The translations under genes and the position numbers were made by a program. Below the pieces are notes generated by a model that had not been told where the DNA came from, made no database searches, and saw only the letters and a list, made by a program, of their open reading frames with translations. From a virus (Duplodnaviria > Caudoviricetes), in the IMG/VR virus record IMGVR_UViG_3300021387_001157, positions 64,001-128,000 of that record: DNA of 64,000 bases; one strand, 5' to 3'. The first letter of the stretch is position 1. The number at the start of each line of letters is the position of its first letter. Positions 1,901 to 19,290 of this stretch are shown piece by piece.

Positions 1901-2911
1901 TTATTTACATACCTCGTCCAAAGATGCACTGAGGTGTTTCGAAAATTCTCTGTATTTCTGTGAGTCGAATATCCATCGACCTCTTTTCTCTTGGCCATAG
2001 TCAATATCCATCTCTTCATAGATGGTACAAGGGTTTGGTTTGAGAATGAATATCTTGTCACTGATGTAGAGTGCTTCTTCCAGTGAGTGGGTGACGTTGA
2101 TGATGGTGTGCTCGGTTTCTGATGCAATCTTGATGATGAGGTCTTGAATATCCCTTTTCATCTTGATGTCCAATGCACCGGTTGCCTCATCCAGGAAGAA
2201 TACCTTACTGCCTGATGTGATGCATCGTGCAATGGACACCCTCTGCAACTGTCCTCCTGAAAGCTTCGAAGCATTGGCGTATTTACTGGCGTGTTCCTCA
2301 AGCCCAACCAGCTTGAGTGTCTCCATTGCCTTTTCACGTGCCTCCTTTTTGTCCATTCCTTTCAGGACCATAGGAAGTGCCACGTTGTCGATGACCGTCA
2401 TCCAATGGAATGACGAGTAACTCTGGAAAACCATGGGTACCGATTTGTACTCATTTATGTTCTGTCCAAATATTCTGATGTCACCTTTCTGTGGTGTCAT
2501 TAATCCGGCCGCCATTTTCAGAAGGCATGATTTACCACATCCACTACCTCCCATAATACTCACGACCTCCGATATCATAGGTTTGTCTTCCACCTTGAGT
2601 GAGAAGTCGTCGAAAATCTTGAACTCGTGTTCAGTCCCCTCATCGAAGATATGTGTGAGATGGTCAATTTCGAAAGAATATCGTTTTCCATCACCAATAG
2701 ATATTTTGGGAGATTTTTCAACCGGAGTCGAAACTGTAGCCGGAGCTGTAGTTGTCACAGGAACTGTAGCCGGAGATGTAGTTGGTTGAATTGGTTTCAT
2801 AAATGGATTGTTGGACACCGGTATAGAAGTTTTGGTCTCAATGGGTTTATCCGAATCCTTACTACCATCTATTGGTTTCGAAAATGCCGAAATATTTTTT
2901 TCCTTTGACAT
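1901..2911 (-). CDS. ABC transporter ATP-binding subunit (TauB/SsuB/NitT family)
   Basis: Walker A GGSGCGKS, Q-loop MVFQ, signature LSGGQLQR, Walker B FFLDEA, H-loop VTHS; ~70-aa P/T/S-rich N-terminal extension. Confidence 0.92.
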   Translation of the reverse strand: MSKEKNISAFSKPIDGSKDSDKPIETKTSIPVSNNPFMKPIQPTTSPATVPVTTTAPATVSTPVEKSPKISIGDGKRYSFEIDHLTHIFDEGTEHEFKIFDDFSLKVEDKPMISEVVSIMGGSGCGKSCLLKMAAGLMTPQKGDIRIFGQNINEYKSVPMVFQSYSSFHWMTVIDNVALPMVLKGMDKKEAREKAMETLKLVGLEEHASKYANASKLSGGQLQRVSIARCITSGSKVFFLDEATGALDIKMKRDIQDLIIKIASETEHTIINVTHSLEEALYISDKIFILKPNPCTIYEEMDIDYGQEKRGRWIFDSQKYREFSKHLSASLDEVCK

Positions 2912-2913
2912 AG

Positions 2914-3723
2914 TTACTTCTTTGTGTGTGGGAATATTATTGGTTTCAAGAAATGGAAGAGTCTGTCTTGCAATAGTCCTATCATCACGATAATGAAGAG
3001 TAGGGCATATACTTCCGGAGTTCTACTCTGCCGAGTGAATGTGGAAATCATTGCACCGATTCCTCCGACTTTATTAAGACTCTCTGCAATGACGACGTAA
3101 GTGTAGGAGATGGCCACAAGACTTCTGATGTCATCGTATACCTTTTCCATCACATATGGGAAGTACACATACCGGAAAGTCTGCCAATTGGACATACCCA
3201 TTGTCTTTGCTGTCTGAAGATAGACATTATCATTTACATTGGTTGGGTTCTGTAAGTCTAGTACCTTACCGACAACGCTTGGAATGGTGAAGATGAAGAT
3301 ACCGAAAGCAAGGAAGAAAGATTTCATACCGAAGGAGAGTCCAAAGATGGAGATAAAGATTCCAGATACTGTTGGTAGCGGGAGGTATCGTAGTGCTTCA
3401 AAATATTTCCTGAACAACGAGTTGAACATAGGTATCATTCCTATGACAAATCCCAACGGTATTGCAAACAGAACTGCAATGAGATATCCAGAGATATTCA
3501 GCGACACCGTGTACCATATGTTGTCCAACAAGTGGTATTTCGAGAATAAGTCGGGAATGATGGATACAACCTTTACTGGATTAGGTAGGATGCCAGGACT
3601 GATGATTTCTCCAGTCAATGTCACGAGATACCATATCGTCACAAGAAATATGGCACCTATCGACCCAATAATCCTCCCATCTTTTTTCGAAATTTCCCCA
3701 CCAGGTTTGAAGTACTTTTTCAT
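2914..3723 (-). CDS. ABC transporter permease (TauC/SsuC family)
   Basis: ILPNP..V motif, multiple TM helices, EAA-like LQTAKTMGMS, VVIAE..GGIG; adjacent to the ATPase. Confidence 0.9.
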   Translation of the reverse strand: MKKYFKPGGEISKKDGRIIGSIGAIFLVTIWYLVTLTGEIISPGILPNPVKVVSIIPDLFSKYHLLDNIWYTVSLNISGYLIAVLFAIPLGFVIGMIPMFNSLFRKYFEALRYLPLPTVSGIFISIFGLSFGMKSFFLAFGIFIFTIPSVVGKVLDLQNPTNVNDNVYLQTAKTMGMSNWQTFRYVYFPYVMEKVYDDIRSLVAISYTYVVIAESLNKVGGIGAMISTFTRQSRTPEVYALLFIIVMIGLLQDRLFHFLKPIIFPHTKK

Positions 3724-3746
3724 TTGATTTCTTTTTTAAAAGTTTA

Positions 3747-3773
3747 AAAGGGAGTCGGGCACTGACTCCCTTT
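3747..3773. terminator. Stem-loop (putative intrinsic terminator or processing hairpin)
   Basis: AAAGGGAGTC-gggcact-GACTCCCTTT perfect inverted repeat; a related imperfect hairpin at ~3806-3832. Confidence 0.6.
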
Positions 3774-3838
3774 CCAATTAAATAAACCTTTTTACCCTTT
3801 CTGGGGAGGGGAGTCAGAACGACCCCCCTTTCACATCG

Positions 3839-5377
3839 TTATCGTTGGACCAGTTTCATTGATGTTGTTCGGTAGGACTGGTTGCTTCCAACTACTCCAT
3901 CCGAGATTGCACGCTTGGGTCCGTTACCCTCGACGATGAATCGGTTCTTATCGATACCTTGACGATTGAGATAGTTGGCTACACTCTGGGCACGTTGCTT
4001 TGATAGTTCGATGTTGTGCTGATAGCTACCAGTGTTGTCGGTGTTACCCTCGATTCGGACATAGCAGTTGTTGAACTGTTTGATGATAGGAAGCATCTCA
4101 CGCTCGATAATGGTCTCAGCATCGACACTCAATGCACTTCCATCGACGGGGAACTCGATAACCACTTCCTTATCAGAGAACGCCTCAGTAGATTTGACTT
4201 TCATCGACGGAGCAGAAAACTTACGTTTGGCGGTACCCTTTGCACTCTGGTCATTGCCAATCTCGTTGCTTGCCATCAGTGATTCGATAATTGAGGTCTC
4301 TGATACTTTACGCCACGGCAGTGTTGCTTTGGCCAATCCGATACCTCCATATACCTGACTCATCTTTGTGTAGAGATTCTCACCGGTGATTCCATCGTAT
4401 CCAATGGTGTTCAGACCGAACCAGTTGATGTTGTCGTCGAGGGTGGCGAAGTTAATCTTGCTGCCGACCGTCAGAACATCCTCCTCCGGAACATCGAACT
4501 CTTGTGAGAACACGTGGCAGATTTCCTTATACGTCTCTGGGTTGTTCATCTCGGAGTTTGCCCACATCAAGGCTTCTGCAATCTTCTTAGCAGTCTCCGG
4601 ATTGTCTTTCAACCACTCATCGTGGGCTAGGAATCCGTCTGTCACAAGAGTCTGGATATCTTTGGTACTTACTATGACGTGTGTGCCGGCAGGACCATTT
4701 TTGATACAAGCGTCGTCATCTGGGCAGAACACCACGGCTGCATCAGCAGTACCTGCCTTGAACGCCGTTGCAACGTCGGAACCATATCCAGTTGTGATAA
4801 TCTGCACGTCACTGTTGGAAAGACCATTGGCAGCGAGAGTATTGAGTAGGAGAGAATGGGATGCTGTACCTTCCGAGCAGACGATTTTCTTACCCTTCAA
4901 GTCTGCCACTCTCTTGATATTCTTGGTGGCCACGATGGCATCGGCACCAGCCGAGAAGTTGTGAATCATAAAATAACGGGCGTCGGTCATAGTGCCGGAC
5001 TGACTTGCCTCTACGGGATACGAATCGAGGGTACAGAAACGGAGGGCATTTTTGTGTTCCTTGAAGTATGAAGTTGCTCCGTCGAAGTCGTCCATTTGGA
5101 TAATCTTCAGCTTTACACCGAATCGTTTGTAGAACTCGGACTCCTTGCTTCCGTCCTTACCGCCGTTACCCCATACGATGGGAGACCAACCGGTATAAGT
5201 ATCCACTAGCAGAACTGCATCGTACTTACTGTCACCACCTCCAGTAATACCGGCGAGATTGATTCCAGATTTTTTTGCTCCGAAGAATATGCCTGCACCT
5301 AGCAGACCTACAACGAGAACGATTACTACTAGACGGCCTAAACCCGTCAATTTTGAAAAAGTGCTTTTGATACTCAT
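3839..5377 (-). CDS. NMT1/THI5-like periplasmic binding protein fused to a C-terminal OmpA-like peptidoglycan-binding domain
   Basis: N-terminal TM anchor; SAGADAIV..IKRVADLKGKKI..GTASH (PBP type 2); RIEGNTDNTGS..NIELSKQRAQSV.NYL (OmpA_C). Confidence 0.85.
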   Translation of the reverse strand: MSIKSTFSKLTGLGRLVVIVLVVGLLGAGIFFGAKKSGINLAGITGGGDSKYDAVLLVDTYTGWSPIVWGNGGKDGSKESEFYKRFGVKLKIIQMDDFDGATSYFKEHKNALRFCTLDSYPVEASQSGTMTDARYFMIHNFSAGADAIVATKNIKRVADLKGKKIVCSEGTASHSLLLNTLAANGLSNSDVQIITTGYGSDVATAFKAGTADAAVVFCPDDDACIKNGPAGTHVIVSTKDIQTLVTDGFLAHDEWLKDNPETAKKIAEALMWANSEMNNPETYKEICHVFSQEFDVPEEDVLTVGSKINFATLDDNINWFGLNTIGYDGITGENLYTKMSQVYGGIGLAKATLPWRKVSETSIIESLMASNEIGNDQSAKGTAKRKFSAPSMKVKSTEAFSDKEVVIEFPVDGSALSVDAETIIEREMLPIIKQFNNCYVRIEGNTDNTGSYQHNIELSKQRAQSVANYLNRQGIDKNRFIVEGNGPKRAISDGVVGSNQSYRTTSMKLVQR

Positions 5378-5450
5378 AATTTTTTTGATTTTGAAATGTT
5401 GATATTTTTATTTGTTATTGTGTTTGTTTCTTAAATTTTCGAGAAACTTA

Positions 5451-5666
5451 TCATGTTCCTTTTCTTTGGTTTTTGTTGTGTTTCGACAAAACCAAAAAGA
5501 TGGTCAATAAGATGGTCAATACAAGTGCAACTGGAATCCATATCGGTGATAAGACCCACCACCAAGACCATTGGACTACATTACAAAGCTTGAGAATGAT
5601 AAAGGCAATCGTAAGAAGTCCGATAAACCCTATTCCACTACTTGTTGCTGTTTTCGATTCACTCAT
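5451..5666 (-). CDS. Small phage-type membrane protein
   Basis: GIGFIGLLTIAFIILKL...WSWWWVLSPIWIP, pattern recalled from a common phage TM family. Confidence 0.75.
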   Translation of the reverse strand: MSESKTATSSGIGFIGLLTIAFIILKLCNVVQWSWWWVLSPIWIPVALVLTILLTIFLVLSKHNKNQRKGT

Positions 5667-5695
5667 TTTTTTTTTCTTTTAATTTCTTACATTTA

Positions 5696-5705
5696 AAAGA
5701 TACTA
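5696..5705 (-). promoter_or_regulatory. Class II upstream motif TAGTATCTTT (copy 1 of 9)
   Basis: AAAGATACTA on + strand; exact copies at 5696, 15570, 16902, 23823, 29611, 38118, 40373, 45995, 63729, each 5-29 nt upstream of a minus-strand ATG. Confidence 0.75.
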
Positions 5706-5742
5706 TTTTTTTTTGGTGTTTTCGAAAAATGAAGAATATTTT

Positions 5743-6822
5743 TTAAAATAAATCTTCTTGTAGAACCGAGAGTGGCATCCACCACTTTACATGAGTCCGG
5801 TTATACAACTCCCACTTTCCATTGCAATAAGAGTTTACCAGTACAGCATGTCCATCACAGTCAAGCATGGTGATGTAGTATCCATCAGTATCTGGATATT
5901 CGTCCGTCTTCGGATTTCTTGGGTTTGAAACGGTCTTTGTCCAAGGAATGGATTTTTCGAGACTTTCCTTTTTTATAGAATATGTTTCTTTTAAATTATT
6001 GGTTTTATAGATTGAACCATACCCATGAAAAAGACCATTCGTGTATTCGAGTATAAAACCGGTATTACTTTTGAGAATCTGTAAAATCTCAGACGGACTC
6101 ATCTTTTTGTCTTCAGTCTTGTCCAATAATGCACGTGTACATACGTTCGCCTCGACGACGGAATCGTCTTCATAGAATGTGTAGGCGTCAACGGGTTCTC
6201 CCGTCACCTTGTTGTTTTTATACGGATGTTTGACAATCTCCTTCACGGTGTTGATTCGTTGACCACTCTTGAATGGTTTCCCAGAAAGCTTTACAACCTT
6301 GTCACCTGGTTCAACAATTGTGTGAAGTTCACGTATTGCTTTCCTCTCAGATTTCGAAAATCTATGCTCCAAAATATGATTTTTGATTTCATTGACTTTT
6401 TTATCGATTTGGTCAATTTCATCATATAAATCTTTAGCGTCTATGGCGATACTGGCTTCGATGAGATTTTCGAAATCGAATTTGTTTTCGTAGAACCACT
6501 TCACGATTTTTCCTATTCCCATAGGACTAAAAAACGTATCATTAGGGAATATCTTATCATACTCACGTTCCTCCTTATTGGTCATCGACATCATCCGTCT
6601 AAGATAAGGTCGAACCAAAACTTCGTCGAGTTTGATGGTTGTACGGAAAATACCCAAGAAATTCGTAACCGTTATCTCTTTCTTTACTATATCAACAGAT
6701 ATAAGTTTGGCTTTCTCCCATATAGCACTGTCGTCATTCCATTCGATATGGAGAATGAGTCCGTAGGGAAGTCTTGCAGACAACTGCTGCAATAAGATTC
6801 CCTGTCTATCTTCTTGCTTCAT
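5743..6822 (-). CDS. Hypothetical multi-domain phage protein
   Basis: Likely start MKQEDRQ at 6822; LSARLPYG...VRPYLR.M.SMT resembles Bacteroidales phage proteins; C-terminal WWMPL is DUF551-like. Confidence 0.65.
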   Translation of the reverse strand: MKQEDRQGILLQQLSARLPYGLILHIEWNDDSAIWEKAKLISVDIVKKEITVTNFLGIFRTTIKLDEVLVRPYLRRMMSMTNKEEREYDKIFPNDTFFSPMGIGKIVKWFYENKFDFENLIEASIAIDAKDLYDEIDQIDKKVNEIKNHILEHRFSKSERKAIRELHTIVEPGDKVVKLSGKPFKSGQRINTVKEIVKHPYKNNKVTGEPVDAYTFYEDDSVVEANVCTRALLDKTEDKKMSPSEILQILKSNTGFILEYTNGLFHGYGSIYKTNNLKETYSIKKESLEKSIPWTKTVSNPRNPKTDEYPDTDGYYITMLDCDGHAVLVNSYCNGKWELYNRTHVKWWMPLSVLQEDLF

Positions 6823-6826
6823 ATTT

Positions 6827-7420
6827 TTATTCTTTAAATTTCCAACAATCTCCAACTGTTTCTGCACCCGATTCGAGTTCGGTCAAAGCCGATGTTGCCC
6901 ATTTCTTCATTGGGTCGTCATCTTTTAGATGCAAATATCTTTCGAGTTTTTTTCTGATATTATTTCTTTCTTTTTCCGTATTTGGAAGGATGTTATATGC
7001 TTTCCAGGTTCCGTCTTCTTTTTGAAAAGCCTGGTACTTTTTATACTCACCACAATATGGGGCGTAGGCGACGACATTTCCTCCACTAAATGGTTCATGT
7101 CCGTCGATAAGGGCATGGACATTCTGCAAGAAAACTTGTAGAACCATTATGATGTCTCCCCTGTCTAGATAGAAACTCAGTGGGTTTTTATCCCAAAATA
7201 ATTTGGAAAGCATTGCACTTATATCGTGTGTCACACATATCAACACGACATAATAAGGATTCGATTCGTCTGATGAATTCCATATATTGTTCACAATTGT
7301 TCTATAATGTCCAATAAGGTCTTTGAACAATGAGTCATCCATTGTAATCCAGAATGGATGCTCCTTTATGGCATCATGCTCGGTTCTCAGAATACTGAGT
7401 CTTTCTTCTCTTGTTTTCAT
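6827..7420 (-). CDS. Hypothetical protein, paralog of 7900-8502
   Basis: Shares NPYY..CVTHD, GD.IMVLQ, KK.QAF.K.DGT, KKWA with 7900-8502. Confidence 0.75.
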   Translation of the reverse strand: MKTREERLSILRTEHDAIKEHPFWITMDDSLFKDLIGHYRTIVNNIWNSSDESNPYYVVLICVTHDISAMLSKLFWDKNPLSFYLDRGDIIMVLQVFLQNVHALIDGHEPFSGGNVVAYAPYCGEYKKYQAFQKEDGTWKAYNILPNTEKERNNIRKKLERYLHLKDDDPMKKWATSALTELESGAETVGDCWKFKE

Positions 7421-7866
7421 TTTACTGTAAAACCTGATTTCTTTACAAGTTGTATTGCCTGTTCTAGAGCTTCTTTTTTCTTTCTCTCTTCATTCTCTTT
7501 TTTCTTCCTTTCGATTTCGATACCTTGGTCAATACGACTCTTAATCTTCTCGATTCTTTTTTTAGATTCTTCGTCCGATTCTGGTTCAGACCATGAAATC
7601 TCTGTTTCAAATGAAGCTTCCCAGTCTGCACCATTTGGGTTATATTGTTCGTCGTATCCCGTCATCTCAATTGTGACGTAAATATCGTCTGGATGGAATC
7701 CAATGGACTTCAGTTCTTTCTCTTTATTCTCGATTGCTTCCAACAATTCTTTCAAGTCTTCACTCGTTAGAGAGATTGTATTTAAACCGTCACAACAATA
7801 TTTCGGAAGACGACTGCTCTTCCAGACATCTATTTTATCGTCGATATCATATCCTCTGTATTCCAT
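7417..7866 (-). CDS. Hypothetical protein, paralog of 8499-8954 and 63277-63723
   Basis: MEYRG..IDD, QYNPNGAD, acidic/basic C-terminus shared. Confidence 0.75.
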   Translation of the reverse strand: MEYRGYDIDDKIDVWKSSRLPKYCCDGLNTISLTSEDLKELLEAIENKEKELKSIGFHPDDIYVTIEMTGYDEQYNPNGADWEASFETEISWSEPESDEESKKRIEKIKSRIDQGIEIERKKKENEERKKKEALEQAIQLVKKSGFTVK

Positions 7867-7899
7867 TTTAACAATCCTTTTAAATATTCAAATTTTTTA

Positions 7900-8502
7900 C
7901 TATTCTACTTTTAATATCCATGTTTCGCCAATCACGTCGTGTCCCTCTTCGATGTCTTTCATTGCATCTTGTGCCCATTTTTTACTAGGGCAGTCGTGCA
8001 GATTGATGTACTTTTCGATTGTTTTCCTGACGTTTGGAAGTTCATTCTTCGATATAACGTTATAGACAACGTATGTTCCGTCATCCTTTTTAAACGCTTG
8101 GAATTTCTTGATACCACCGCTTCTCGTGTAGGTGTATCCGACGACAGCACCTTCGTAGTCATTGTGGTCGATGATTCGGTGGATGTTCATCAGATAAATT
8201 TGGAGGACCATAATGACATCTCCCATATGTTCCTTCCACCGGTTATTGAACTCACCAAGTATGATGGAGTTGGAGATGTTCCCGAGCATACAGTTGAAGT
8301 CGTGAGTCACACATCTGATGATTGCATAATACGGGTTGGTCACATCTGCAATCCCCCAGTAGTTACGGGAAATCTCACCGAACTTTTTCAACACATCCGG
8401 AAGAAACCGATTGTCGAAGTTAATCCAGTAGGGACTCTCCTTCAGTTCGTCGTGTGCTTTCTTGACGTTTTCGAAACGCCGCTTGATTTCTTCGTTTGTC
8501 AT
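7900..8502 (-). CDS. Hypothetical protein, paralog of 6827-7420
   Basis: Motifs shared with 6827-7420. Confidence 0.75.
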   Translation of the reverse strand: MTNEEIKRRFENVKKAHDELKESPYWINFDNRFLPDVLKKFGEISRNYWGIADVTNPYYAIIRCVTHDFNCMLGNISNSIILGEFNNRWKEHMGDVIMVLQIYLMNIHRIIDHNDYEGAVVGYTYTRSGGIKKFQAFKKDDGTYVVYNVISKNELPNVRKTIEKYINLHDCPSKKWAQDAMKDIEEGHDVIGETWILKVE

Positions 8503-8954
8503 ATTTTCAAATTTTTTACGGTTCCACCATTCTCCTCGATGGTCTTCACTGCTGCTACAAGTGCTTCACGTCTGATTCGTTCAACCCTTGCTTCACTGGC
8601 AATCCGGTCTTCAATGACCATATCGATTCGTTCCTTTTCCCACCGGATTCGTTTCTCCTTTTCCTCTTCATTCTCTTCCTCCATCCAAGAGATGTCGGTG
8701 ATGAATTCGGAGTCTTGGTCTGCACCATTCGGGTTATATTGTGCATCAATACCTAACATCTCTATCTTAACGTCACTGAACCGGACACCTTTCTCCTTGA
8801 GTTCGGATTCTTTCTTTCTGATAATTTCCTTCAACTCATCGAGTTCCTCGATTCCGAGTTCGATTCCATTGGAGTAGTCGTAGGTGAACTTATCCAACCT
8901 CTCGTATCTTTTGACATCTTTTGTGTCATCAATGTGTTGTCCTCTGTATTCCAT
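8499..8954 (-). CDS. Hypothetical protein, paralog of 7417-7866
   Basis: Start placed at MEYRGQ (8954) by paralogy. Confidence 0.75.
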   Translation of the reverse strand: MEYRGQHIDDTKDVKRYERLDKFTYDYSNGIELGIEELDELKEIIRKKESELKEKGVRFSDVKIEMLGIDAQYNPNGADQDSEFITDISWMEEENEEEKEKRIRWEKERIDMVIEDRIASEARVERIRREALVAAVKTIEENGGTVKNLKI

Positions 8955-8958
8955 TTTA

Positions 8959-9630
8959 TTAATTGTTATAACGATTATTACTGATTTTGTTATCAATGAA
9001 CCACTTGGCGGCAGCCTCTGCATCAGACTTGGTGTTCCACTTCATATTGCCATCCTTATCCTTGATGTCTAGCTTACCTATCTTGGCATACCAATGGTTT
9101 CCACCATAGTTCTTGCAACTCTCTGGAAGTCCTAACGCCAAGTAGTCCATCTTCCCCCACTGCATATACCGTACCTCTTCTAGACGGTATTGCTCCTCTA
9201 TGGGAAACTCAAGACTGTCCTTGACAACCTCGTCGACAATCTCATCACCATCAACCATCATGGTTTCAACAACACCGTTGTCAAGATATATTTCACCACT
9301 GTATTTGTGGAAGTCCCTTACCCTGCTGTTGATGGTATCGTTCTCAAGACGTATCGCCGCTTCAATCCAGGAACATCTGAAAATATGCATTATTGGTTCG
9401 ACCGCCTTTGCCCAAGGAGTGATTGGATGTTCCGTGTACACACTGTATCCTTCTGGGTTAGATTTGTCTTTAATCAGATGACTGTTTTCCACATGGTCTC
9501 TTACACCGTCACGAATCTCTGCACCGAATATTTTCTTGAAGTGCTCTACAACCTGCTCCTCAGAATCCGGTTTGAAATACCAGTGACCATCATCTGAACC
9601 TTTTCTTTTTATCTTGACAAATTTGTACAT
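8959..9630 (-). CDS. Hypothetical protein
   Basis: Likely ATG at 9630 (MYKFVKI), just after the upstream stop. Confidence 0.7.
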   Translation of the reverse strand: MYKFVKIKRKGSDDGHWYFKPDSEEQVVEHFKKIFGAEIRDGVRDHVENSHLIKDKSNPEGYSVYTEHPITPWAKAVEPIMHIFRCSWIEAAIRLENDTINSRVRDFHKYSGEIYLDNGVVETMMVDGDEIVDEVVKDSLEFPIEEQYRLEEVRYMQWGKMDYLALGLPESCKNYGGNHWYAKIGKLDIKDKDGNMKWNTKSDAEAAAKWFIDNKISNNRYNN

Positions 9631-9634
9631 GGTA

Positions 9635-10243
9635 TCAGATGTTGATTGATTTGACAAACTCTATGTGTTCCTTGCTCATCGGAACTCCGGTGAAGTTCAC
9701 GTTGAGGAAAGCTCTTCTTACTTTCTCGTCCGAACAGTTCTCACGGAGGAAATAGAATGTGAGGCAGTTTCTTCCCTTGAAAAACCTCTGGGCGGGCTTG
9801 CTGAAGTCCTTCCAATAATTGCCGTTGCTGCCTGGGAACTTATTTTCGAAAAAGTCCATGAGGCAGTTAAGTCTCTGTTTTCCGTCACGACTTCTTTTGT
9901 CTTCCTTGATGACGAGACTGTTCATCATACTTATTACATTATGCACAGAAGCGTTAGAAGTACTATCCCAGGGGAGGTCTGACATTATGTTGTCGAGTCC
10001 GGTTCCCATCAGTGAACTGCATCCATTGGTTCTTTTCTCCATCGATATGGTGGCGACCGGACTATTGTCGAGTCCAAGTTTTTCCATCATTCTTAATCCG
10101 AGAAGTTTTCTGACGACAGATTTGCCTGACGAGTTGCTTCCAGTTAAGACGGTTACCTTACCTGGTTCGATAGACTCTGCCACATCGATGATTCGGTCGA
10201 TATGACCGTTAATGTGTTCTGATGATAAATCTGTATAATCCAT
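9635..10243 (-). pseudogene. Chimera: truncated P-loop ATPase N-half fused to DUF262 C-half
   Basis: Walker A GSNSSGKS but no Walker B; C-terminal DGKQRL...FLNVNFTGVPMSKEHIEFVK aligns with the end of 39473-40351. Confidence 0.65.
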
Positions 10244-10244
10244 T

Positions 10245-10883
10245 TTATATATATTTTTCAGTTAGTTTTCTTTCTGTTATATGTCTTTCTCCGGACATGA
10301 GATACTCAATTTGGTTTTCGAAAACCATATCTTTCCTGACAAATGTGGTAAGAACTCTGTATTCTTTCTCTCGTGTTCCAAATCCAACTCCGTCATCCAT
10401 ACTCCAGAATATACTGTTCTCGTGGTTAGGACACTGATAGTTAATACTGGAAAGTATTCTGTTCTTAGTGAAGAAATTGGTTATCAGACTTATACGGTTA
10501 TCAGACTCACACTGTCCAAGTCTTTCCATATATCTGTCAAAAAAGTGTGGGGTGATGAACAAGAATTTGTCACCTTTATTGTAGAGTGAGCAGACCCATA
10601 CTCTGTTGTTTCTTCTAAATGTTGAAAAGGTGAGAGTTTTTAATCCATTCTTCAAATAGTCACGCTTTCCGTATGTGGAGATTATCAGATGATACTCAAT
10701 ACCAGAGTTCTTGCTTGTGAAATCAACCCTGTTGAAATAACGAAGGTTGTCATCTGTCATTCTAAGGCAAGCCTTTCTGTACTTAGAATCCGAAATAACA
10801 GAGATAATCTTTCTATGAACATAGTCCATTTCTGAAATAATCAGATTCTTGATTTCATTGAGTGTCATTGTGTCTACATACAT
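10245..10883 (-). CDS. Hypothetical protein
   Basis: 212-aa ORF; TPHFFDRY.ERL motif recalled from Bacteroidales phage proteins. Confidence 0.7.
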   Translation of the reverse strand: MYVDTMTLNEIKNLIISEMDYVHRKIISVISDSKYRKACLRMTDDNLRYFNRVDFTSKNSGIEYHLIISTYGKRDYLKNGLKTLTFSTFRRNNRVWVCSLYNKGDKFLFITPHFFDRYMERLGQCESDNRISLITNFFTKNRILSSINYQCPNHENSIFWSMDDGVGFGTREKEYRVLTTFVRKDMVFENQIEYLMSGERHITERKLTEKYI

Positions 10884-10895
10884 GGCTCATGAAAT

Positions 10896-11375
10896 TTAAA
10901 GTTTGACAATACTTTTCACGACCCTTGACAAGTAGTCGTAGTGGAGGAACATATATAAACTAGGCTCTACCGGTTTGCCTCCGTCATACTGAATTTCGTA
11001 GAATGTCTTGTATCCTTCTTCAGTATTCTTTATTGAAAAGACCGAGAACATATGGTCACTGAGAAGTGAAAGTGTCTTTGCTTTCCTCAGGGCGGCTTCA
11101 TAATCGTCCGTGAGATAAAGCGTGTCCATTAATGACTCAGACAGCACACAGAATTTATAGTTGGGGTTGACACTCTCCCTTCCTATAGTCATCATAAGTT
11201 CGTCATGGTTGGTCACATTATAGTCTGGACGTGAGACTATGTTTTTAAGAACATTTATTTTTTTAGATACATCATCTGTTTCTAAATTCACACTCTTAAA
11301 AAACTCTATAAATGATTCAAGGGAAGTTGCTGCCCATTGAATAGTGTCAATTTCTTCTTTTCCAATTATTTTCAT
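10896..11375 (-). CDS. Hypothetical protein (first gene after a host-type promoter)
   Basis: 159-aa ORF, ATG 25 nt downstream of the TATCTTTG element. Confidence 0.7.
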   Translation of the reverse strand: MKIIGKEEIDTIQWAATSLESFIEFFKSVNLETDDVSKKINVLKNIVSRPDYNVTNHDELMMTIGRESVNPNYKFCVLSESLMDTLYLTDDYEAALRKAKTLSLLSDHMFSVFSIKNTEEGYKTFYEIQYDGGKPVEPSLYMFLHYDYLSRVVKSIVKL

Positions 11376-11383
11376 TTTGTTTC

Positions 11384-11531
11384 CTTTTTAATTTCTGATG
11401 CAAAGATACGAACTTTTTTTGAATTACCAAACTTTTTTTTCAAAAAAATTTAATTTTTTTCGTAACTGCTTAGTTTAGTGAAAGTAAAAAATGATTTTTT
11501 TTTCAATCACTATATAAAATCCTTTGCAAAA
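11384..11531. repeat. ~150-bp dispersed repeat, copy 1 (copy 2 at 19141-19290)
   Basis: 11384-11440 identical to 19141-19197 (57 bp); shared CGTAACTGCTT and AAAATCCyTTGCAAAAT blocks further along. Confidence 0.9.
11401..11431 (-). promoter_or_regulatory. Bacteroidetes primary-sigma promoter (-33 TTTG / -7 TAnnTTTG)
   Basis: Minus strand reads TTTG-N19-TATCTTTG, matching the Bacteroides consensus. Confidence 0.85.
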
Positions 11532-11579
11532 TAATAAAAAAGAAACCTGTTTTTAAAAAAAATAGACACCTTTAAAAAG

Positions 11580-11620
11580 AATCAGACAACTCGTCTCAGT
11601 AAGAGGGAGTTATCTGATTT
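11580..11620 (-). terminator. Putative intrinsic terminator
   Basis: AATCAGAcAACTC...GAGTTaTCTGATT imperfect inverted repeat downstream of 11651-11842. Confidence 0.45.
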
Positions 11621-11650
11621 TCGAAAAAAAGGAAAACAAGTATGTAGACA

Positions 11651-11842
11651 TCAACCTACGTTTTCAAGTATATATTGTATCAGTATTTCTTTCGGAATTT
11701 GGTCAAGCATTTCCCTTGCTTTCTTTTTGTTTGCTTCAATGTCTTCAGTTGGGAGACGTTGAAGCATGATAGCAGAACCATTTTCCACAACTTTATTTTC
11801 TTTTCTATATAGAGATACTGCTTCTTTTATCTTTTCTTTCAT
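11651..11842 (-). CDS. Hypothetical protein
   Basis: 63-aa ORF in operon order. Confidence 0.6.
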   Translation of the reverse strand: MKEKIKEAVSLYRKENKVVENGSAIMLQRLPTEDIEANKKKAREMLDQIPKEILIQYILENVG

Positions 11843-11846
11843 TTAC

Positions 11847-12389
11847 TTATGTTTTTTCGAGTGTATCCAAATCTAGGTTTTCGAAAATCTTCATGAATTT
11901 TTCAAACTCGGGATTTCTCCAAGCGTTCATACAGTATGCTCTTGGTCTTGAATAATGGTAATAGTTTAACTTGATATGTTGTTCGGCTGCTCGTTTAGTC
12001 AGGAAGCAACCTGTCTTGTCTGATAGTTTTTCATAAGATTCGTACTCGTGGGTATCGACGATTCTATTTAGGTACTGTCGTGCAAATCCGAGTACATCCT
12101 CTTCGAATACTTTATTGATGTGTTTCCACTTGATACATATGTCGGATGTTTGGTCTGGTAGGAGATTCTCTTCGATGTATTCGACATAATCCTCAATTGA
12201 GTCGAAAACCTTGTTATCTTGTGTCGAATCTATAATCTTGACAAAATCCCCATAACCTTCTTCGGTGAGTCGCTCCCCCGATTCCATTATTCCCCAGAAT
12301 CGGGGGGTGGCAGTACCTTCTGTGTCTTGTTCTCTGAGTTCCTTCTGTAGGGTTTTCAGAAACTCAAGCTCTTCTTTTGTCATAATCAA
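11847..12389 (-). CDS. Conserved phage hypothetical protein
   Basis: QDT.GTA.PRFW ... FLTKRAAEQHI..N.YHY..PRAY...AWRNPE pattern. Confidence 0.7.
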   Translation of the reverse strand: MIMTKEELEFLKTLQKELREQDTEGTATPRFWGIMESGERLTEEGYGDFVKIIDSTQDNKVFDSIEDYVEYIEENLLPDQTSDICIKWKHINKVFEEDVLGFARQYLNRIVDTHEYESYEKLSDKTGCFLTKRAAEQHIKLNYYHYSRPRAYCMNAWRNPEFEKFMKIFENLDLDTLEKT

Positions 12390-13492
12390 CCTCCGAAATA
12401 TGAAGACTTGGGTGTTTCTCCTGATGTGGAGTCTGGAATAGGTTCTGGAGTTGCAATCTCAGAAAACTCTATCGTCTCGGTTTGAATACCGGAACCAATT
12501 GCCTTATGAGAGAAACTGATGTTACCGGTATCTTCAACGGGTTTGTCAAAGATTCCAAACCCATTCTTCTCAAACTCAGCCATTATTTCATTTGCCTTGT
12601 CCAAGTTGATGTCGGAGTTGATTTCAAAATTTGTAAGGATGTCGTTACTTCCGTCGATGAGTCTGTTGATTTCGGCAATTGACTGATTGATGGTATCGTT
12701 CACAGTCTTCATGGCGAGTTCCTGTTCCATAGAGGAAGTAAGAATACCGTGCATGATGGAGTTGATGTTTTTCATTGCCGTGCTCTGGGCGACTGCCTGC
12801 TCATACTCCTCTACTCTGAAGTCATGTTCGTTCTGAGCATCTTGCACTTTATATCCAACAGCAATTTGGAGTTTCTGCATCACTTTCAGATATTTCTCCG
12901 AAGTCTGTATTCTTGCACGTTGGTTCTCGATTTGCTTCTTTCCTCGAACAATCTCGTTGGAAGTTAATTGGAGTTGAGCCATGAGTTTTGTTCTCTCACT
13001 CTGGTCGGTAGTGTTCCTGAGTTTGTTTTCAATGGCGGTTTTCTTACGGACGTTGTTTTCGAAATTCTCCTCATATTCTTTCAACTTCCGTTTCATTCTT
13101 ACAAGGATGCTGCCGAGATTCGTCACATTCTTGTCGATGATTTGGAGTTTCTCCCTCATCTCTCGGATACCGTTTTCAAGGATGGCGATTGGGTCAATAT
13201 TGACGACCAGTCCGTAGGCTTTTCTCATCAGTTGTAACCACAACAGACTGATAAGTCTCCGAGTTTTCTTGTTGGTCACGATATAGACGATGGCGGCAAG
13301 GGCGGCAAGTTCGGCGACGAACAATAGTAGATTTGCTGTCGCTGCCACGAGGAACGGGAGTGCAAACTTGAAGAATGCATATCCGATTCCTAGTATGGCC
13401 AAGATACCGGTCAGTTTTGCAAACCCACCACCGGGTCTTTTCCACAATTCTTTGAATTTGTCTTTTGGTTGAATGGCTACATTGTTGTCCAT
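12386..13492 (-). CDS. Membrane-anchored long coiled-coil protein (PspA/IM30-like)
   Basis: Two TM helices, then IDPIAILE..I.EM and ~200 aa of heptad-rich helix, the PspA-type layout. Confidence 0.6.
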   Translation of the reverse strand: MDNNVAIQPKDKFKELWKRPGGGFAKLTGILAILGIGYAFFKFALPFLVAATANLLLFVAELAALAAIVYIVTNKKTRRLISLLWLQLMRKAYGLVVNIDPIAILENGIREMREKLQIIDKNVTNLGSILVRMKRKLKEYEENFENNVRKKTAIENKLRNTTDQSERTKLMAQLQLTSNEIVRGKKQIENQRARIQTSEKYLKVMQKLQIAVGYKVQDAQNEHDFRVEEYEQAVAQSTAMKNINSIMHGILTSSMEQELAMKTVNDTINQSIAEINRLIDGSNDILTNFEINSDINLDKANEIMAEFEKNGFGIFDKPVEDTGNISFSHKAIGSGIQTETIEFSEIATPEPIPDSTSGETPKSSYFGG

Positions 13493-13512
13493 ATTTTTTC
13501 CTTTCTTGTTGA

Positions 13513-14196
13513 TTAGATTGTTAATGATTCTATTTTTTGACGGTCGGTGTTCAGAACATCCAATACAGACTGGATGGAGGCGTTGAACATCATTCGGTTG
13601 TTGTTGATTTCAACCTTTGCTGCTTGCATTGCCATATTCTTCTCACCGATTTGTTCCATGAGGGCATCATATTCTGCCTTCATCTGCTGGGCACGGGTTT
13701 GCATCTCTGTTATTTCTGTCTCCACACTGGAAACTTTTTCGTGCTCCAATTTGTCCAACTCACCGAGTCCTGTCTGTTTCTCGGTCTCCACCACACCAAG
13801 GTAGAAGTCGATTGCCTGAAGAATGGCGTTCTTATCGAAGTTCGGGTATTGTCCTTTCAACACATTGAAGGCTGCTGAAATCTTCTGCTCCAAGGTGATT
13901 GGGAGACTGTCTAAACTTTGCAGGGTCGTCTTGAGTTCGAGATAGTCGGGACCTGGCCGGTTCTGAGCGACGATTGCATTCCAAATTCGGTCAATGATGT
14001 TCTTGTCTGCCACTGCTGTCGGGGAACTGGTACTCTGTTCGATTGTCGATGTAGGGGCGAATGACGATGAGATTGAACCCATTGAACTAACAGGAATCTG
14101 AGTGCCTACATTTGTAGTGTCTTGGACAACCTCTTTCGAAACTTGTGGGTCTTCCTTGATGAGAGCTCTTTTGATTTTTTCTCCTATTGATGCCAT
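13513..14196 (-). CDS. Coiled-coil protein, probable partner of the PspA-like gene
   Basis: S/T-rich linker, N.PGPDYLE.K motif, C-terminal coiled coil. Confidence 0.65.
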   Translation of the reverse strand: MASIGEKIKRALIKEDPQVSKEVVQDTTNVGTQIPVSSMGSISSSFAPTSTIEQSTSSPTAVADKNIIDRIWNAIVAQNRPGPDYLELKTTLQSLDSLPITLEQKISAAFNVLKGQYPNFDKNAILQAIDFYLGVVETEKQTGLGELDKLEHEKVSSVETEITEMQTRAQQMKAEYDALMEQIGEKNMAMQAAKVEINNNRMMFNASIQSVLDVLNTDRQKIESLTI

Positions 14197-14226
14197 TTTA
14201 CTTTCTTTTTTTAATTGTTAGACAAG

Positions 14227-14889
14227 TTAGAAAGCGAGTCGTGCAACGAGCCAAGGTTGGAAGTTCCAATTCCCGTCTCCATGTAAGGATAACTTGGGGT
14301 CGTTACCATTGACGTTGAAGAGCATAAGGTTCACACCAACATGTACCATCGGAGTAATTTTGTAATACACCTTCTGCTCGGTACAAAGGTTGAATGAATC
14401 GAGTCCCCACGTGTCGAGATAACCCTCATAGTAGAACTTTTCGAAATCTGCACTGCTATTGATACTGAACTGCCAGTTGCTTCCACTGCCGAAATCGTAT
14501 CGGTACATTGGAGTTAGGTTGAAACAGAAGTTACCCAACAGAAGTTCGTATGCAAAACCGGCGTTAATCATATTGTGGTCGGGCCAGTACATGGCGGTAG
14601 GTACCTTGAAGTAGGGAAAATCTGATGTCCGGAATCTGGTCTCCAAATGTCCGAGGATGTGGGAACCGGCGATTCTGTATTCTCCGTAGAGGATGCCGTA
14701 ACCCACGGCCTGGTTGTTGGTCACTGTGAACTCATTGTACGAATACACGTTGAAGTTGCTGTCTGACTTGAAAAAGTCGGCGACGAACTTCTGATTTCCG
14801 TCATAGGACTGATGCCACTGAATACTTTGAGCATTTGCTGCTGCTGCCATCACAAATACGGCGATGATTGTGAAAAGAACTTTCTTCAT
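14227..14889 (-). CDS. Outer-membrane beta-barrel, DUF5020/Tsx nucleoside-channel-like
   Basis: Signal peptide ...AAANA/Q, alternating aromatic strands, terminal Phe (ARLAF). Confidence 0.6.
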   Translation of the reverse strand: MKKVLFTIIAVFVMAAAANAQSIQWHQSYDGNQKFVADFFKSDSNFNVYSYNEFTVTNNQAVGYGILYGEYRIAGSHILGHLETRFRTSDFPYFKVPTAMYWPDHNMINAGFAYELLLGNFCFNLTPMYRYDFGSGSNWQFSINSSADFEKFYYEGYLDTWGLDSFNLCTEQKVYYKITPMVHVGVNLMLFNVNGNDPKLSLHGDGNWNFQPWLVARLAF

Positions 14890-14910: not shown

Positions 14911-15189
14911 TTATTTGTTGTTTAAGATTTCGTAGTTGTACAGAGGCATAATTTCTCCATCATATAGTTCCCATTCGTTTGTCACGTCTTTAAAGGAGAA
15001 GAATTGTTCGTAGTATTCCACACGTGTGCTTGGAAACCGAATTCCCCTTTCTGTGTCATTTGACGTTTCCACGATATACTTCTTTTCCGAGTCGTCTTCT
15101 TCGAGTTCTATGAAGTAGGATTTGTGCCACAAGACTGACCGGACACGCTTGCCTTCCAAGAGACATTTTATTGCTTCTGTGAAATTCAT
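14911..15189 (-). CDS. DUF2829 / Tad2-like protein
   Basis: MNFTEAIKCLLEGKRVRS..W and terminal D...EWELY fit the DUF2829 pattern. Confidence 0.5.
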   Translation of the reverse strand: MNFTEAIKCLLEGKRVRSVLWHKSYFIELEEDDSEKKYIVETSNDTERGIRFPSTRVEYYEQFFSFKDVTNEWELYDGEIMPLYNYEILNNK

Positions 15190-15654: not shown

Positions 15655-16875
15655 TTATAAGTTTGGCAATTCGGACACTTTACGGATAAGAATTCTGAAA
15701 TATGGACATTTTCCATTTATTGACAAGTCCTTATCATCATTACCTTTACGGAATTTGATTATCTCAAATTGGTTTGGGTTATAGTGTTCCAGATATGTGA
15801 TGGGAACGCCGATAACACCGTCATAATCGGCCGGAATGTTCTTTACCGAACCAGCGTCTATTGCTTTGTAGTTGTCATAAGTTGGGTAGTCATCTGGGTT
15901 GTATTTCTTATACAATGGAATCTTTTCGATTCTCTTTTCGTGTTCAAGGTTTGTGTACCAAACAATGTTTCCGAATCTTTGGTAAACAACACCATCTTCA
16001 ATAAACTGGTTTTTATTGTTTTCATCAATATCCTCGACAGGTATTCTGAATATTGAAGGTCTTGAAAAACCCAACCAAACCTTGTTGTCCTTTATCAGTG
16101 GAAAAAACTCCTTGTATGTGATAGCGTTCTCTGGACCGATTACAATGAACTTCTTACCCATCGTGATAAGTTGTTCAATGAAGTCACGGAAGCGGCTGAA
16201 CGGAGGGTTTGTAATAACAATGTCACACTCTTTCATAATCTCACGACACTCACGACTGTCGAATGAACCGTTACCCTTCAATGGGTAAAAGTCAATCTCA
16301 CTTTCGTCGATGAATCTGTTATCCTCATACTCACCGTTGTACTCCCATTTGTAACCACATTTCTCCAAGTCCCATTCGGCCTTGTAACCGACACCGTGTG
16401 GGTTGTATTGTGTGAAGATGACCTTTTTCAAACCAAGTGTGTGGAACAACTTAGTGAAATAATTTACGAACTCACTACGCCCTTCGTTGCAAACCTTGTC
16501 ACAAGGACAATATACTATTTTTCCTTTGAAGAATTTTTTGTAATGATTCATTTCTTTCGAAATGTCATCCATTGTAGTGTAGAAGTCATCATTCTTCTCC
16601 CTTTTGGCCTTTGCCATATTTTTGTTATTCTTTTTTGTCTTTTTTGTCTTTCTTGTTTTTGTTGTATCAACATCATCTTCAAAAAGCGGTTCGAATGCAA
16701 CTTCCTTCGATGTTGAGTAAGGAACAAACGAATTTTTCTTCAGATACTTTGCAGAAAAACCTGGACAGTTACGTAGAGCCCAGTGCCCTGTGGTTTCGTT
16801 GAAGAAAAGTTCACACCCATCTGGTACGCTGATTTTAGGTCTTATATTTTTGTCTGTCTGAAAATTTTTTTCCAT
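15655..16875 (-). CDS. Adenine-specific DNA methyltransferase (EcoRI-methylase family)
   Basis: AK..KNDDFYT, KIVYCPCD, G.GSFDS.EC, catalytic IVITNPPFS, YDNYKAID, GVPITYL; ~85-aa N-terminal extension. Confidence 0.88.
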   Translation of the reverse strand: MEKNFQTDKNIRPKISVPDGCELFFNETTGHWALRNCPGFSAKYLKKNSFVPYSTSKEVAFEPLFEDDVDTTKTRKTKKTKKNNKNMAKAKREKNDDFYTTMDDISKEMNHYKKFFKGKIVYCPCDKVCNEGRSEFVNYFTKLFHTLGLKKVIFTQYNPHGVGYKAEWDLEKCGYKWEYNGEYEDNRFIDESEIDFYPLKGNGSFDSRECREIMKECDIVITNPPFSRFRDFIEQLITMGKKFIVIGPENAITYKEFFPLIKDNKVWLGFSRPSIFRIPVEDIDENNKNQFIEDGVVYQRFGNIVWYTNLEHEKRIEKIPLYKKYNPDDYPTYDNYKAIDAGSVKNIPADYDGVIGVPITYLEHYNPNQFEIIKFRKGNDDKDLSINGKCPYFRILIRKVSELPNL

Positions 16876-19140: not shown

Positions 19141-19290
19141 CTTTTTAATTTCTGATGCAAAGATACGAACTTTTTTTGAATTACCAAACTTTTTTTTGAA
19201 AAAAAATTATTTTTTTTCGTAACTGCTTGATTTTATGAAATAAAAAAATGAAAAAAATTTTAGTAAGAATAAAAAAATCCCTTGCAAAAT
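19141..19290. repeat. ~150-bp dispersed repeat, copy 2
   Basis: Matches 11384-11531. Confidence 0.9.
19158..19188 (-). promoter_or_regulatory. Bacteroidetes primary-sigma promoter driving the phage sigma operon
   Basis: TTTG-N19-TATCTTTG on the minus strand. Confidence 0.85.

Follow-up and report, generated by a model that had tools for sequence, protein, structure and literature searches.

What is a complete bacterial envelope transport system, accompanied by a relative of the membrane-repair protein PspA, doing in the genome of a phage—and do its genes, which lie in two groups 7 kb apart, belong together at all? These questions are raised by a 64,000-nucleotide stretch of DNA (hereafter, the window) covering bases 64001–128000 of the 193.8-kb IMG/VR virus record IMGVR_UViG_3300021387_001157 (Caudoviricetes; CheckV completeness 67%). 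Every gene in the first 18 kb of the window lies on the minus strand. In transcription order, the genes of interest encode (i) an outer-membrane beta-barrel protein (14227–14889), (ii) a soluble protein with a coiled coil, CC1 (13513–14196), (iii) CC2, a PspA homolog with a predicted transmembrane (TM) anchor (12386–13492), (iv) a fusion of a solute-binding protein (SBP) with an OmpA_C domain (3839–5377), (v) the permease (2914–3723), and (vi) the ATPase (1901–2911) of an ATP-binding cassette (ABC) importer. All six had been named, at these coordinates, in a preliminary description drawn up from the letters of the window, and their open reading frames (ORFs) are confirmed here.

Five of these genes—in the order CC1, TM-PspA, TM-anchored SBP-OmpA_C, permease and ATPase—form a core that is inherited within a Lak-related lineage of gut megaphages, and the cassette in the window is a phage-borne member of an operon type that has already been described. 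Its mechanism, we think, is probably that of a PspA-linked, wall-tethered ABC importer, in which uptake from barrel to ATPase is combined with membrane care by PspA and CC1.

The two halves and the 7-kb insertion

The first half of the cassette (barrel, CC1, CC2) is separated from the second (SBP-OmpA, permease, ATPase) by 7008 bp containing 12 small phage ORFs (5378–12385, minus strand). Both halves stand out in base composition, as had been noticed beforehand: their GC contents are 0.444 (12386–14889) and 0.449 (1901–5377), against 0.388 for the insert and a window mean of 0.367. Indeed, among 3-kb windows taken across the entire stretch (standard deviation 0.030, maximum 0.449), the cassette halves are the GC-richest parts.

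A DNA search of the phage collection returned only a 197-bp match between the ABC half and Lak-B phages, and nothing for the PspA half; protein-level searches were therefore needed. These identified, as the nearest named relatives, Prevotella Lak megaphages (SBP ~44% identity) and a 735-kb uncultured phage (38%). In the latter (LR756501), genes for CC1, CC2, SBP-OmpA, permease and ATPase follow one another directly and in this order, as they do in four phage contigs of 55–400 kb from IMG/VR or metagenomes. The cassette of Lak-B5 is near-contiguous, with only three small ORFs intervening. The 7-kb block itself is common, with indels, only to a 90%-identical relative, L005; seven other relatives do not have it, and in these a mere 20–50 bp lie between CC2 and SBP-OmpA. 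Because the halves are contiguous in relatives, the block is an insertion confined to this lineage, placed after the CC2 stop and before the SBP start, and the earlier proposal that the two halves derive from one ancestral operon stands. The first gene of the insert and the CC2 stop share 4 bp. The cassette, then, tolerates a 7-kb insertion in its middle.

Could the six genes nevertheless be chance neighbours, that is, unrelated, higher-GC morons with no function in common? The window on its own gives this idea something to build on, with 7 kb of unrelated ORFs splitting the genes and, inside the insert, a promoter-like site of the Bacteroidota type (TTTG-N19-TATCTTTG; 11401–11431, minus strand, with an identical 31-mer at 19158–19188). 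With 6 occurrences against an expectation of 3.3, the pattern as such shows no enrichment in the window. Beyond the window, the cassette genes are clustered, and collinear, in more than 40 other loci from phages and several bacterial lineages, and their association survives rearrangement. Such synteny already contradicts an accidental grouping, which we find scarcely credible.

The small two-TM protein encoded within the insert (5451–5666, minus strand; 71 amino acids; phrog_1374) had also been counted as part of the module. Among relatives it is present only in L005, and it is a passenger of the insert rather than a conserved cassette member.

The remaining content of the insert is of some interest in its own right. 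None of its 12 ORFs has an informative Pfam or PHROG match. Positions 6827–9023 contain a tandem duplication of a two-gene unit, giving two pairs of paralogs: 6827–7420 resembles 7900–8502 (about 39% identity via L005), and 7417–7866 resembles 8499–9023 (about 40%); no family match was obtained for any of these four genes. The homolog of 9635–10243 in L005 (L005:3958–5859) is split, with residues 1–123 and 120–202 aligning 1.28 kb apart, which suggests an inserted mobile element or intron.

The proteins of the cassette

The three transporter genes are those of a type I importer of the NitT/TauT kind: intact ATPase motifs, a BPD_transp_1 permease and an NMT1/SsuA-type SBP. The ATPase (336 amino acids, with a 78-residue low-complexity N-terminal extension; Pfam ABC_tran, E = 8e-27) retains Walker A (GGSGCGKS), the Q-loop, LSGGQ, Walker B (VFFLDE) and the H-loop (VTH). 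The permease (269 amino acids; BPD_transp_1, E = 9.5e-8) is TauC/SsuC-like and has a degenerate EAA loop (QTAKTMG-N9-VYFP). The binding protein (512 amino acids) consists of a single N-terminal TM helix (residues 16–34), an NMT1/SsuA-type domain (Pfam NMT1 at residues 78–273, E = 1.7e-16), a linker, and a C-terminal OmpA domain (residues 409–499, E = 6e-16); it matches phrog_25518 over its full length, and the same NMT1-OmpA fusion is seen in at least 646 homologs. In NCBIfam, the best matches of all three parts lie in the nitrate/sulfonate/taurine group, with the permease nearest to SaoP and TauC. All equivalog cut-offs are missed: SaoA scores 158 bits (cut-off 360), SaoP 81 (295), and the uca SBP 80 (334).

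The OmpA domain scores 59 bits against a PF00691 cut-off of 27.2 and, from residue 444, keeps the motif TD..G....N..LS..RA (GNTDNTGSYQHNIELSKQRA). D447 and R462 within this motif, which we take to be the peptidoglycan-contacting residues of OmpA-like domains, are invariant among 13 homologs. The retained motif upholds the predicted role of this domain in peptidoglycan binding.

CC2 (368 amino acids) opens with a two-helix hydrophobic hairpin that is followed by long helices, an architecture conserved in an alignment of 18 homologs; directly after the hairpin these share the motif ..DPIAIL.NGI.EM... Positive residues border the hydrophobic stretch on both sides, and the remainder of the protein is therefore predicted to be cytoplasmic. 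When the CC2 alignment was compared by hhalign with 19 Bacteroidota PF04012 proteins, a match was obtained with a probability of 96.8% (E = 2e-10, 208 columns; reversed-sequence controls gave 6–7%), pairing CC2 residues 84–309 with PspA residues 17–232, which is essentially the entire PspA domain. An AlphaFold2 (AF2) model contains long helices at residues 101–160 and 164–244, with a predicted local distance difference test (pLDDT) score of 80–95. Seven of the nine top Foldseek matches of this middling model are Vipp1 or PspA (E = 3e-3 to 1.6e-2), and one CC2 homolog carries the JGI annotation 'phage shock protein A'; HMMER profiles of CC2 returned, at most, coiled-coil noise from PDB sequences. 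Judged by profile-profile comparison, CC2 is thus a divergent PspA/IM30 homolog with a predicted built-in membrane anchor, and the label "PspA-like" given to it earlier holds.

The tail of CC2 is disordered and, in the window protein, ends in an aromatic motif, ..SSYFGG. Across homologs, a variable disordered linker leads to C-termini (window positions 12386–12460) of the type ..(K/N)(Y/W)F in gut phages and ..DTSWLTANKDLLK in Chitinophagaceae. This conserved end motif looks like a docking peptide for a partner.

CC1 (227 amino acids) starts with a disordered region bearing a conserved MGLK.F-type motif, continues with a PGPDY.E motif whose G82, P83, D84, Y85 and E87 vary little or not at all, and ends in a coiled coil. 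Its family comprises 428 representatives (50% clustering, E ≤ 1e-3), and its gene is always found directly upstream of the TM-PspA gene. The preliminary description had treated CC1 and CC2 as a PspA-like pair. For CC1 this cannot be maintained: hhalign gives probabilities of only 5% against PspA and 6% against CC2. Neither Pfam nor PDB sequences yielded a CC1 match beyond coiled-coil noise, a Protein Atlas look-up returned unnamed clusters only, and PF03357 (Snf7), sought in 151 Bacteroidota genomes for comparison, had no match there. CC1 is best described as the predicted dedicated partner of TM-PspA.

The outer-membrane protein (220 amino acids) has a signal peptide and ends in ...ARLAF. Its AF2 model (pLDDT 83) is a barrel of 12 beta-strands. 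In a comparison with 48,161 representative chains, the nucleoside channel Tsx (1tlw) came first (Z 17.4, root-mean-square deviation 3.2 over 184 residues), followed by PcoB (Z 15.2), NanC (Z 14.8), and then OMPLA and KdgM; Foldseek ranks PcoB, KdgM and NanC first. The barrel is 11% identical to Tsx. None of 18 family members matches PF03502 (Tsx) up to E = 10, the window protein has no Pfam match of any kind, and a profile search of PDB sequences found nothing. In the model, then, the barrel is Tsx-like by fold, as first suggested, and not by sequence family.

The link between the barrel and the transporter, also anticipated, is kept in four gene orders, three of which place the barrel gene immediately ahead of the permease. 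In the window the barrel gene lies upstream of CC1. In L009 a confirmed homolog lies between SBP-OmpA and the permease, a site at which a 380-kb NCBI contig has a 203-amino-acid gene that is, by position and size alone, probably another. In L065 the barrel lies past an extra 333-amino-acid gene and immediately before the permease. Finally, one cassette is permuted to barrel, permease, ATPase, CC1, CC2, SBP-OmpA. A linkage that persists when the genes are reordered points to a shared function, the simplest being the passage of the transported solute through the outer membrane. A search with the barrel found 38 homologs, every one of them on a metagenome contig; 401 Bacteroidota genomes gave just two matches, both marginal and partial. 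The family looks phage-restricted.

The cassette ORFs can be read without an alternative genetic code. TAG terminates just three of the 69 long minus-strand ORFs of the window; in Lak-B5, several ORFs near the cassette require TAG as a residue, and the cassette genes do not. Immediately upstream of the barrel, 14911–15189 (92 amino acids) matches phrog_6670, and its N-terminus has a weak match to the Tad2-like proteins of Thoeris anti-defence (E = 3.9e-4; 21.3 bits, cut-off 25). Further upstream, 15655–16875 encodes an EcoRI-type adenine methyltransferase (Pfam, E = 6e-104); no restriction enzyme was noticed alongside it.

Distribution in phages and bacteria

Is a complete ABC importer unusual in a phage? 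This had been supposed, and it does not hold. PHROGs includes families for all three ABC parts, and the set is found in Lak phages, the 735-kb phage and Bacillus phage G. In addition, a preprint by Yuan and Chen (bioRxiv 10.64898/2026.10.24.761521, October 2026) gives PspA in 184 huge phages and a complete ABC system (SBP, ATPase, permease) beside 15 of 189 pspA loci; according to the same authors, these phages encode many beta-barrel outer-membrane proteins, often near transport genes.

Phage G has another gene order: permease (gp243), ATPase (gp245) and SBP-OmpA (gp249/gp250), with a TM protein between them, gp247, that contains a PspA-like domain (probability 88%, E = 3e-6). Profiles of CC1, CC2 and PspA do not match its gp246 or gp248 significantly; gp246 resembles CC1 in architecture and N-terminal motif only. 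A literature search on phage G together with ABC transporters found nothing relevant.

Nor is the module a phage invention. A comparative genomics study (Ravi et al. 2024, mSystems, PMC11237479) describes the operon type X, PspA, SIG+PBPB+OmpA, permease (TM), ABC-ATPase. Its example, OGG56892.1 from Candidatus Handelsmanbacteria, is extended by a TM-Snf7 gene and a tandem AAA+ ATPase, both treated as optional. In the reading given there, OmpA binds peptidoglycan, the binding domain takes a solute, and transport is tied to membrane remodelling (PMC11237479).

A survey of bacteria, with one genome per species, revealed the SBP-OmpA fusion in 30 loci, mostly in Chitinophagaceae. Wherever the contig extends far enough, CC1, CC2, permease and ATPase are present in the same order. 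In three of these loci (L028, L033 and L039, on a 6.5-Mb chromosome and contigs of 1.2 and 2.6 Mb) the cassette is flanked by housekeeping and other chromosomal genes: cystathionine lyase, DeoR, a SusC-like receptor, DbpA, NIF3, BipA and the DNA polymerase III delta subunit. A canonical PF04012 gene is missing from four of five cassette-bearing Chitinophagaceae genomes.

These chromosomal copies bear on a further reading, namely that the cassette serves the phage in manipulating the host envelope, either for superinfection exclusion or for the timing of lysis. The PspA homolog would counter an early loss of membrane potential, while the wall-tethered protein and the barrel would bar other phages. 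A barrel family that is essentially phage-only and a cassette long retained in the megaphage lineage would suit such a role, as would two proposals of the preprint (10.64898/2026.10.24.761521), namely that outer-membrane proteins of phages act at the level of receptors and that phage PspA maintains the membrane. However, the same core operon sits among chromosomal housekeeping genes, so its basic function is cellular; there is no sequence sign of receptor mimicry, and exclusion needs no complete, catalytically intact importer. We therefore judge this reading very unlikely.

How did the phages come by their copy? In a quick, midpoint-rooted tree of the SBP, the gut megaphages form one clade (99% support) apart from a tight Chitinophagaceae clade. 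The separate clades indicate a long vertical inheritance of the phage copy. A recent capture from Chitinophagaceae was considered, and is ruled out by these same, well-supported clades.

CC2 also allows the cassette to be followed without its transporter. Strong CC2 homologs were found in 13 of 401 sampled Bacteroidota genomes, and eight regions from seven of the 13 were examined. One, on a 6-Mb chromosome, is a full collinear cassette; one has the same order with weaker matches; in one, the ABC genes are divergent. The remaining five contain CC1 and CC2 alone, with no ABC genes nearby. CC1 and CC2 thus form the dyad that holds together most closely, and the transporter joins it often but not necessarily. 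Seven of the 13 genomes have two CC2 matches each.

Some further genes recur around the cassette. Chitinophagaceae cassettes have a conserved sixth gene right after the ATPase (L028:13330–13881, and 17 other bacterial loci), encoding a cytoplasmic protein of ~183 amino acids with the motif LHLAGH.IQWN and no Pfam match; it is absent from phage copies. The flanks of the cassette in L009, L010, L065 and a GCA_016648615 contig contain, no more than a few kb away, genes for nucleotide or cofactor salvage (adenylosuccinate synthetase-like, nucleoside deoxyribosyltransferase, IMPDH, NAPRTase, phosphoribosyltransferase). In gene-rich megaphages, this may be chance. The L065 flank also has a Band_7/SPFH gene.

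Proposed function and comparison with known systems

If the cassette is a wall-tethered importer linked to PspA, the following steps can be envisaged. The barrel would admit a small solute across the outer membrane. The SBP, its N-terminal helix set in the inner membrane and its OmpA domain attached to peptidoglycan, would capture the solute and pass it to a permease dimer, with uptake powered by the ATPase. On the cytoplasmic face, the TM-PspA homolog and CC1 would form an ESCRT-III-type assembly to shield or remodel the inner membrane where the transporter sits. The likely benefit to the phage is the preservation of the host envelope and energy state during a long infection; a supply of precursors is a possible further one.

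Several observations weigh against this proposal, in part or as a whole. Firstly, CC2 has no PF04012 match in Pfam, falling below the gathering threshold; HMMER detects PspA only weakly in three of 18 CC2 relatives (E ~0.006), and the pLDDT of the CC2 model is 66 overall. Secondly, with every NCBIfam equivalog cut-off missed by a wide margin, the substrate is not assignable, and the nucleoside-like one suggested at the outset is a candidate. Thirdly, the 7-kb insert may uncouple the expression of the two halves. Fourthly, the bacterial cassettes examined yielded no barrel homolog, which makes the trans-envelope route a phage-side addition rather than a property of the class; Lak-B5 and several relatives are likewise without a barrel (in Lak-B5, SBP-OmpA and permease are 1.4 kb apart, and translation of this gap with TAG as Gln gives three small ORFs, none of them a barrel). 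Finally, from the regions in which CC1 and CC2 stand alone, coupling to transport is not obligatory.

Another explanation takes up a difference from the Handelsmanbacteria example (PMC11237479), which has both an AAA+ and a TM-Snf7 gene: no AAA+ or Snf7 domain was found among the scanned ORFs of positions 1–18 kb of the window. The ABC unit might be a wall-anchored transducer of signal or energy for the PspA polymer, and not a nutrient importer. SBP-OmpA would report ligand occupancy or membrane-to-wall geometry, and the ATPase cycle would, via the permease, control the assembly and disassembly of TM-PspA and CC1, replacing the AAA+ protein of longer operons. An SBP fixed at both ends is odd for one that should cycle freely, but this SBP keeps many invariant pocket-type residues, and the permease domain is of the usual type I importer kind. 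The strict five-gene order across phages and bacteria would also fit such control, as would the docking-peptide-like motif, ..KYF in phages and ..WLTANKDLLK in Chitinophagaceae, that ends the disordered CC2 tail; yet CC1-CC2 pairs occur without ABC genes, so the polymer does not need them, and the gene for a phage outer-membrane channel adjoins the permease gene, consistent with solute flux. On balance, we regard a sensing or energising role of the ABC unit as unlikely. Its more explicit form, in which the ABC unit exerts mechanochemical control over an ESCRT-III-type polymer and ligand or membrane-to-wall distance is passed to TM-PspA and CC1, possibly via the CC2 tail, seems to us quite unlikely. 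If true, the energy for membrane remodelling would come from an ABC ATPase rather than from a Vps4-like AAA+ protein, and huge phages would manage the host inner membrane in this way over the course of a long infection.

We return to uptake combined with membrane care; for the uptake part, a barrel gene that follows the transporter through rearrangements is an argument, as it speaks for real solute flux. Whichever mechanism applies, the cassette is one of few multi-gene envelope systems found intact both in free-living bacteria and in huge phages whose hosts belong to different phyla. The cellular operon, in a Chitinophaga or Flavobacterium that can be cultivated, could offer a tractable route to the role of an importer-wired PspA, and to the reasons for the retention of the set in megaphages.

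How does the cassette compare with characterized systems? It shares with the NitT/TauT importers (TauABC, SsuABC, NrtABCD) an NMT1/SsuA-type SBP, a TauC-like permease and a NrtD/TauB-like ATPase; it differs in that the phage SBP is predicted to have two anchors, a TM helix at one end and OmpA_C at the other, and the set, given the missed equivalog cut-offs, falls in no characterized substrate group.

CC2 resembles PspA and Vipp1 (IM30) of the ESCRT-III superfamily in profile homology across the PspA domain and, more tentatively, in the predicted long helical hairpin and the top structural matches of its model. Unlike these proteins, it has a two-helix hydrophobic hairpin in place of the N-terminal amphipathic helix, an additional disordered tail with a terminal aromatic motif, and a score under the Pfam threshold. 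In Bacillus subtilis, the PspA-family protein LiaH reaches the membrane via a small membrane protein, LiaI; CC2, by contrast, joins anchor and PspA domain in a single chain.

The barrel is alike to the Tsx channel of Escherichia coli (1TLW), and to the other 12-stranded barrels PcoB, NanC and KdgM, in being monomeric and of similar size; its 11% identity to Tsx and its position outside PF03502 set it apart.

With the phages of Yuan and Chen (10.64898/2026.10.24.761521), the window has in common PspA beside a complete ABC system in huge gut phages, loci being compared by description only. The OmpA fusion, CC1, a cellular five-gene counterpart and the linkage of the barrel are not described in the available part of that preprint.

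The closest counterpart is the operon of Ravi et al. (PMC11237479), whose gene order is found in the phage relatives and in the bacterial loci, and is kept in the window with 7 kb between PspA and PBP+OmpA. In comparison with the Handelsmanbacteria example of that study, the window copy is phage-borne, is split by the 7-kb insert, is accompanied by an outer-membrane barrel, and encodes a PspA homolog that carries its own predicted membrane anchor.

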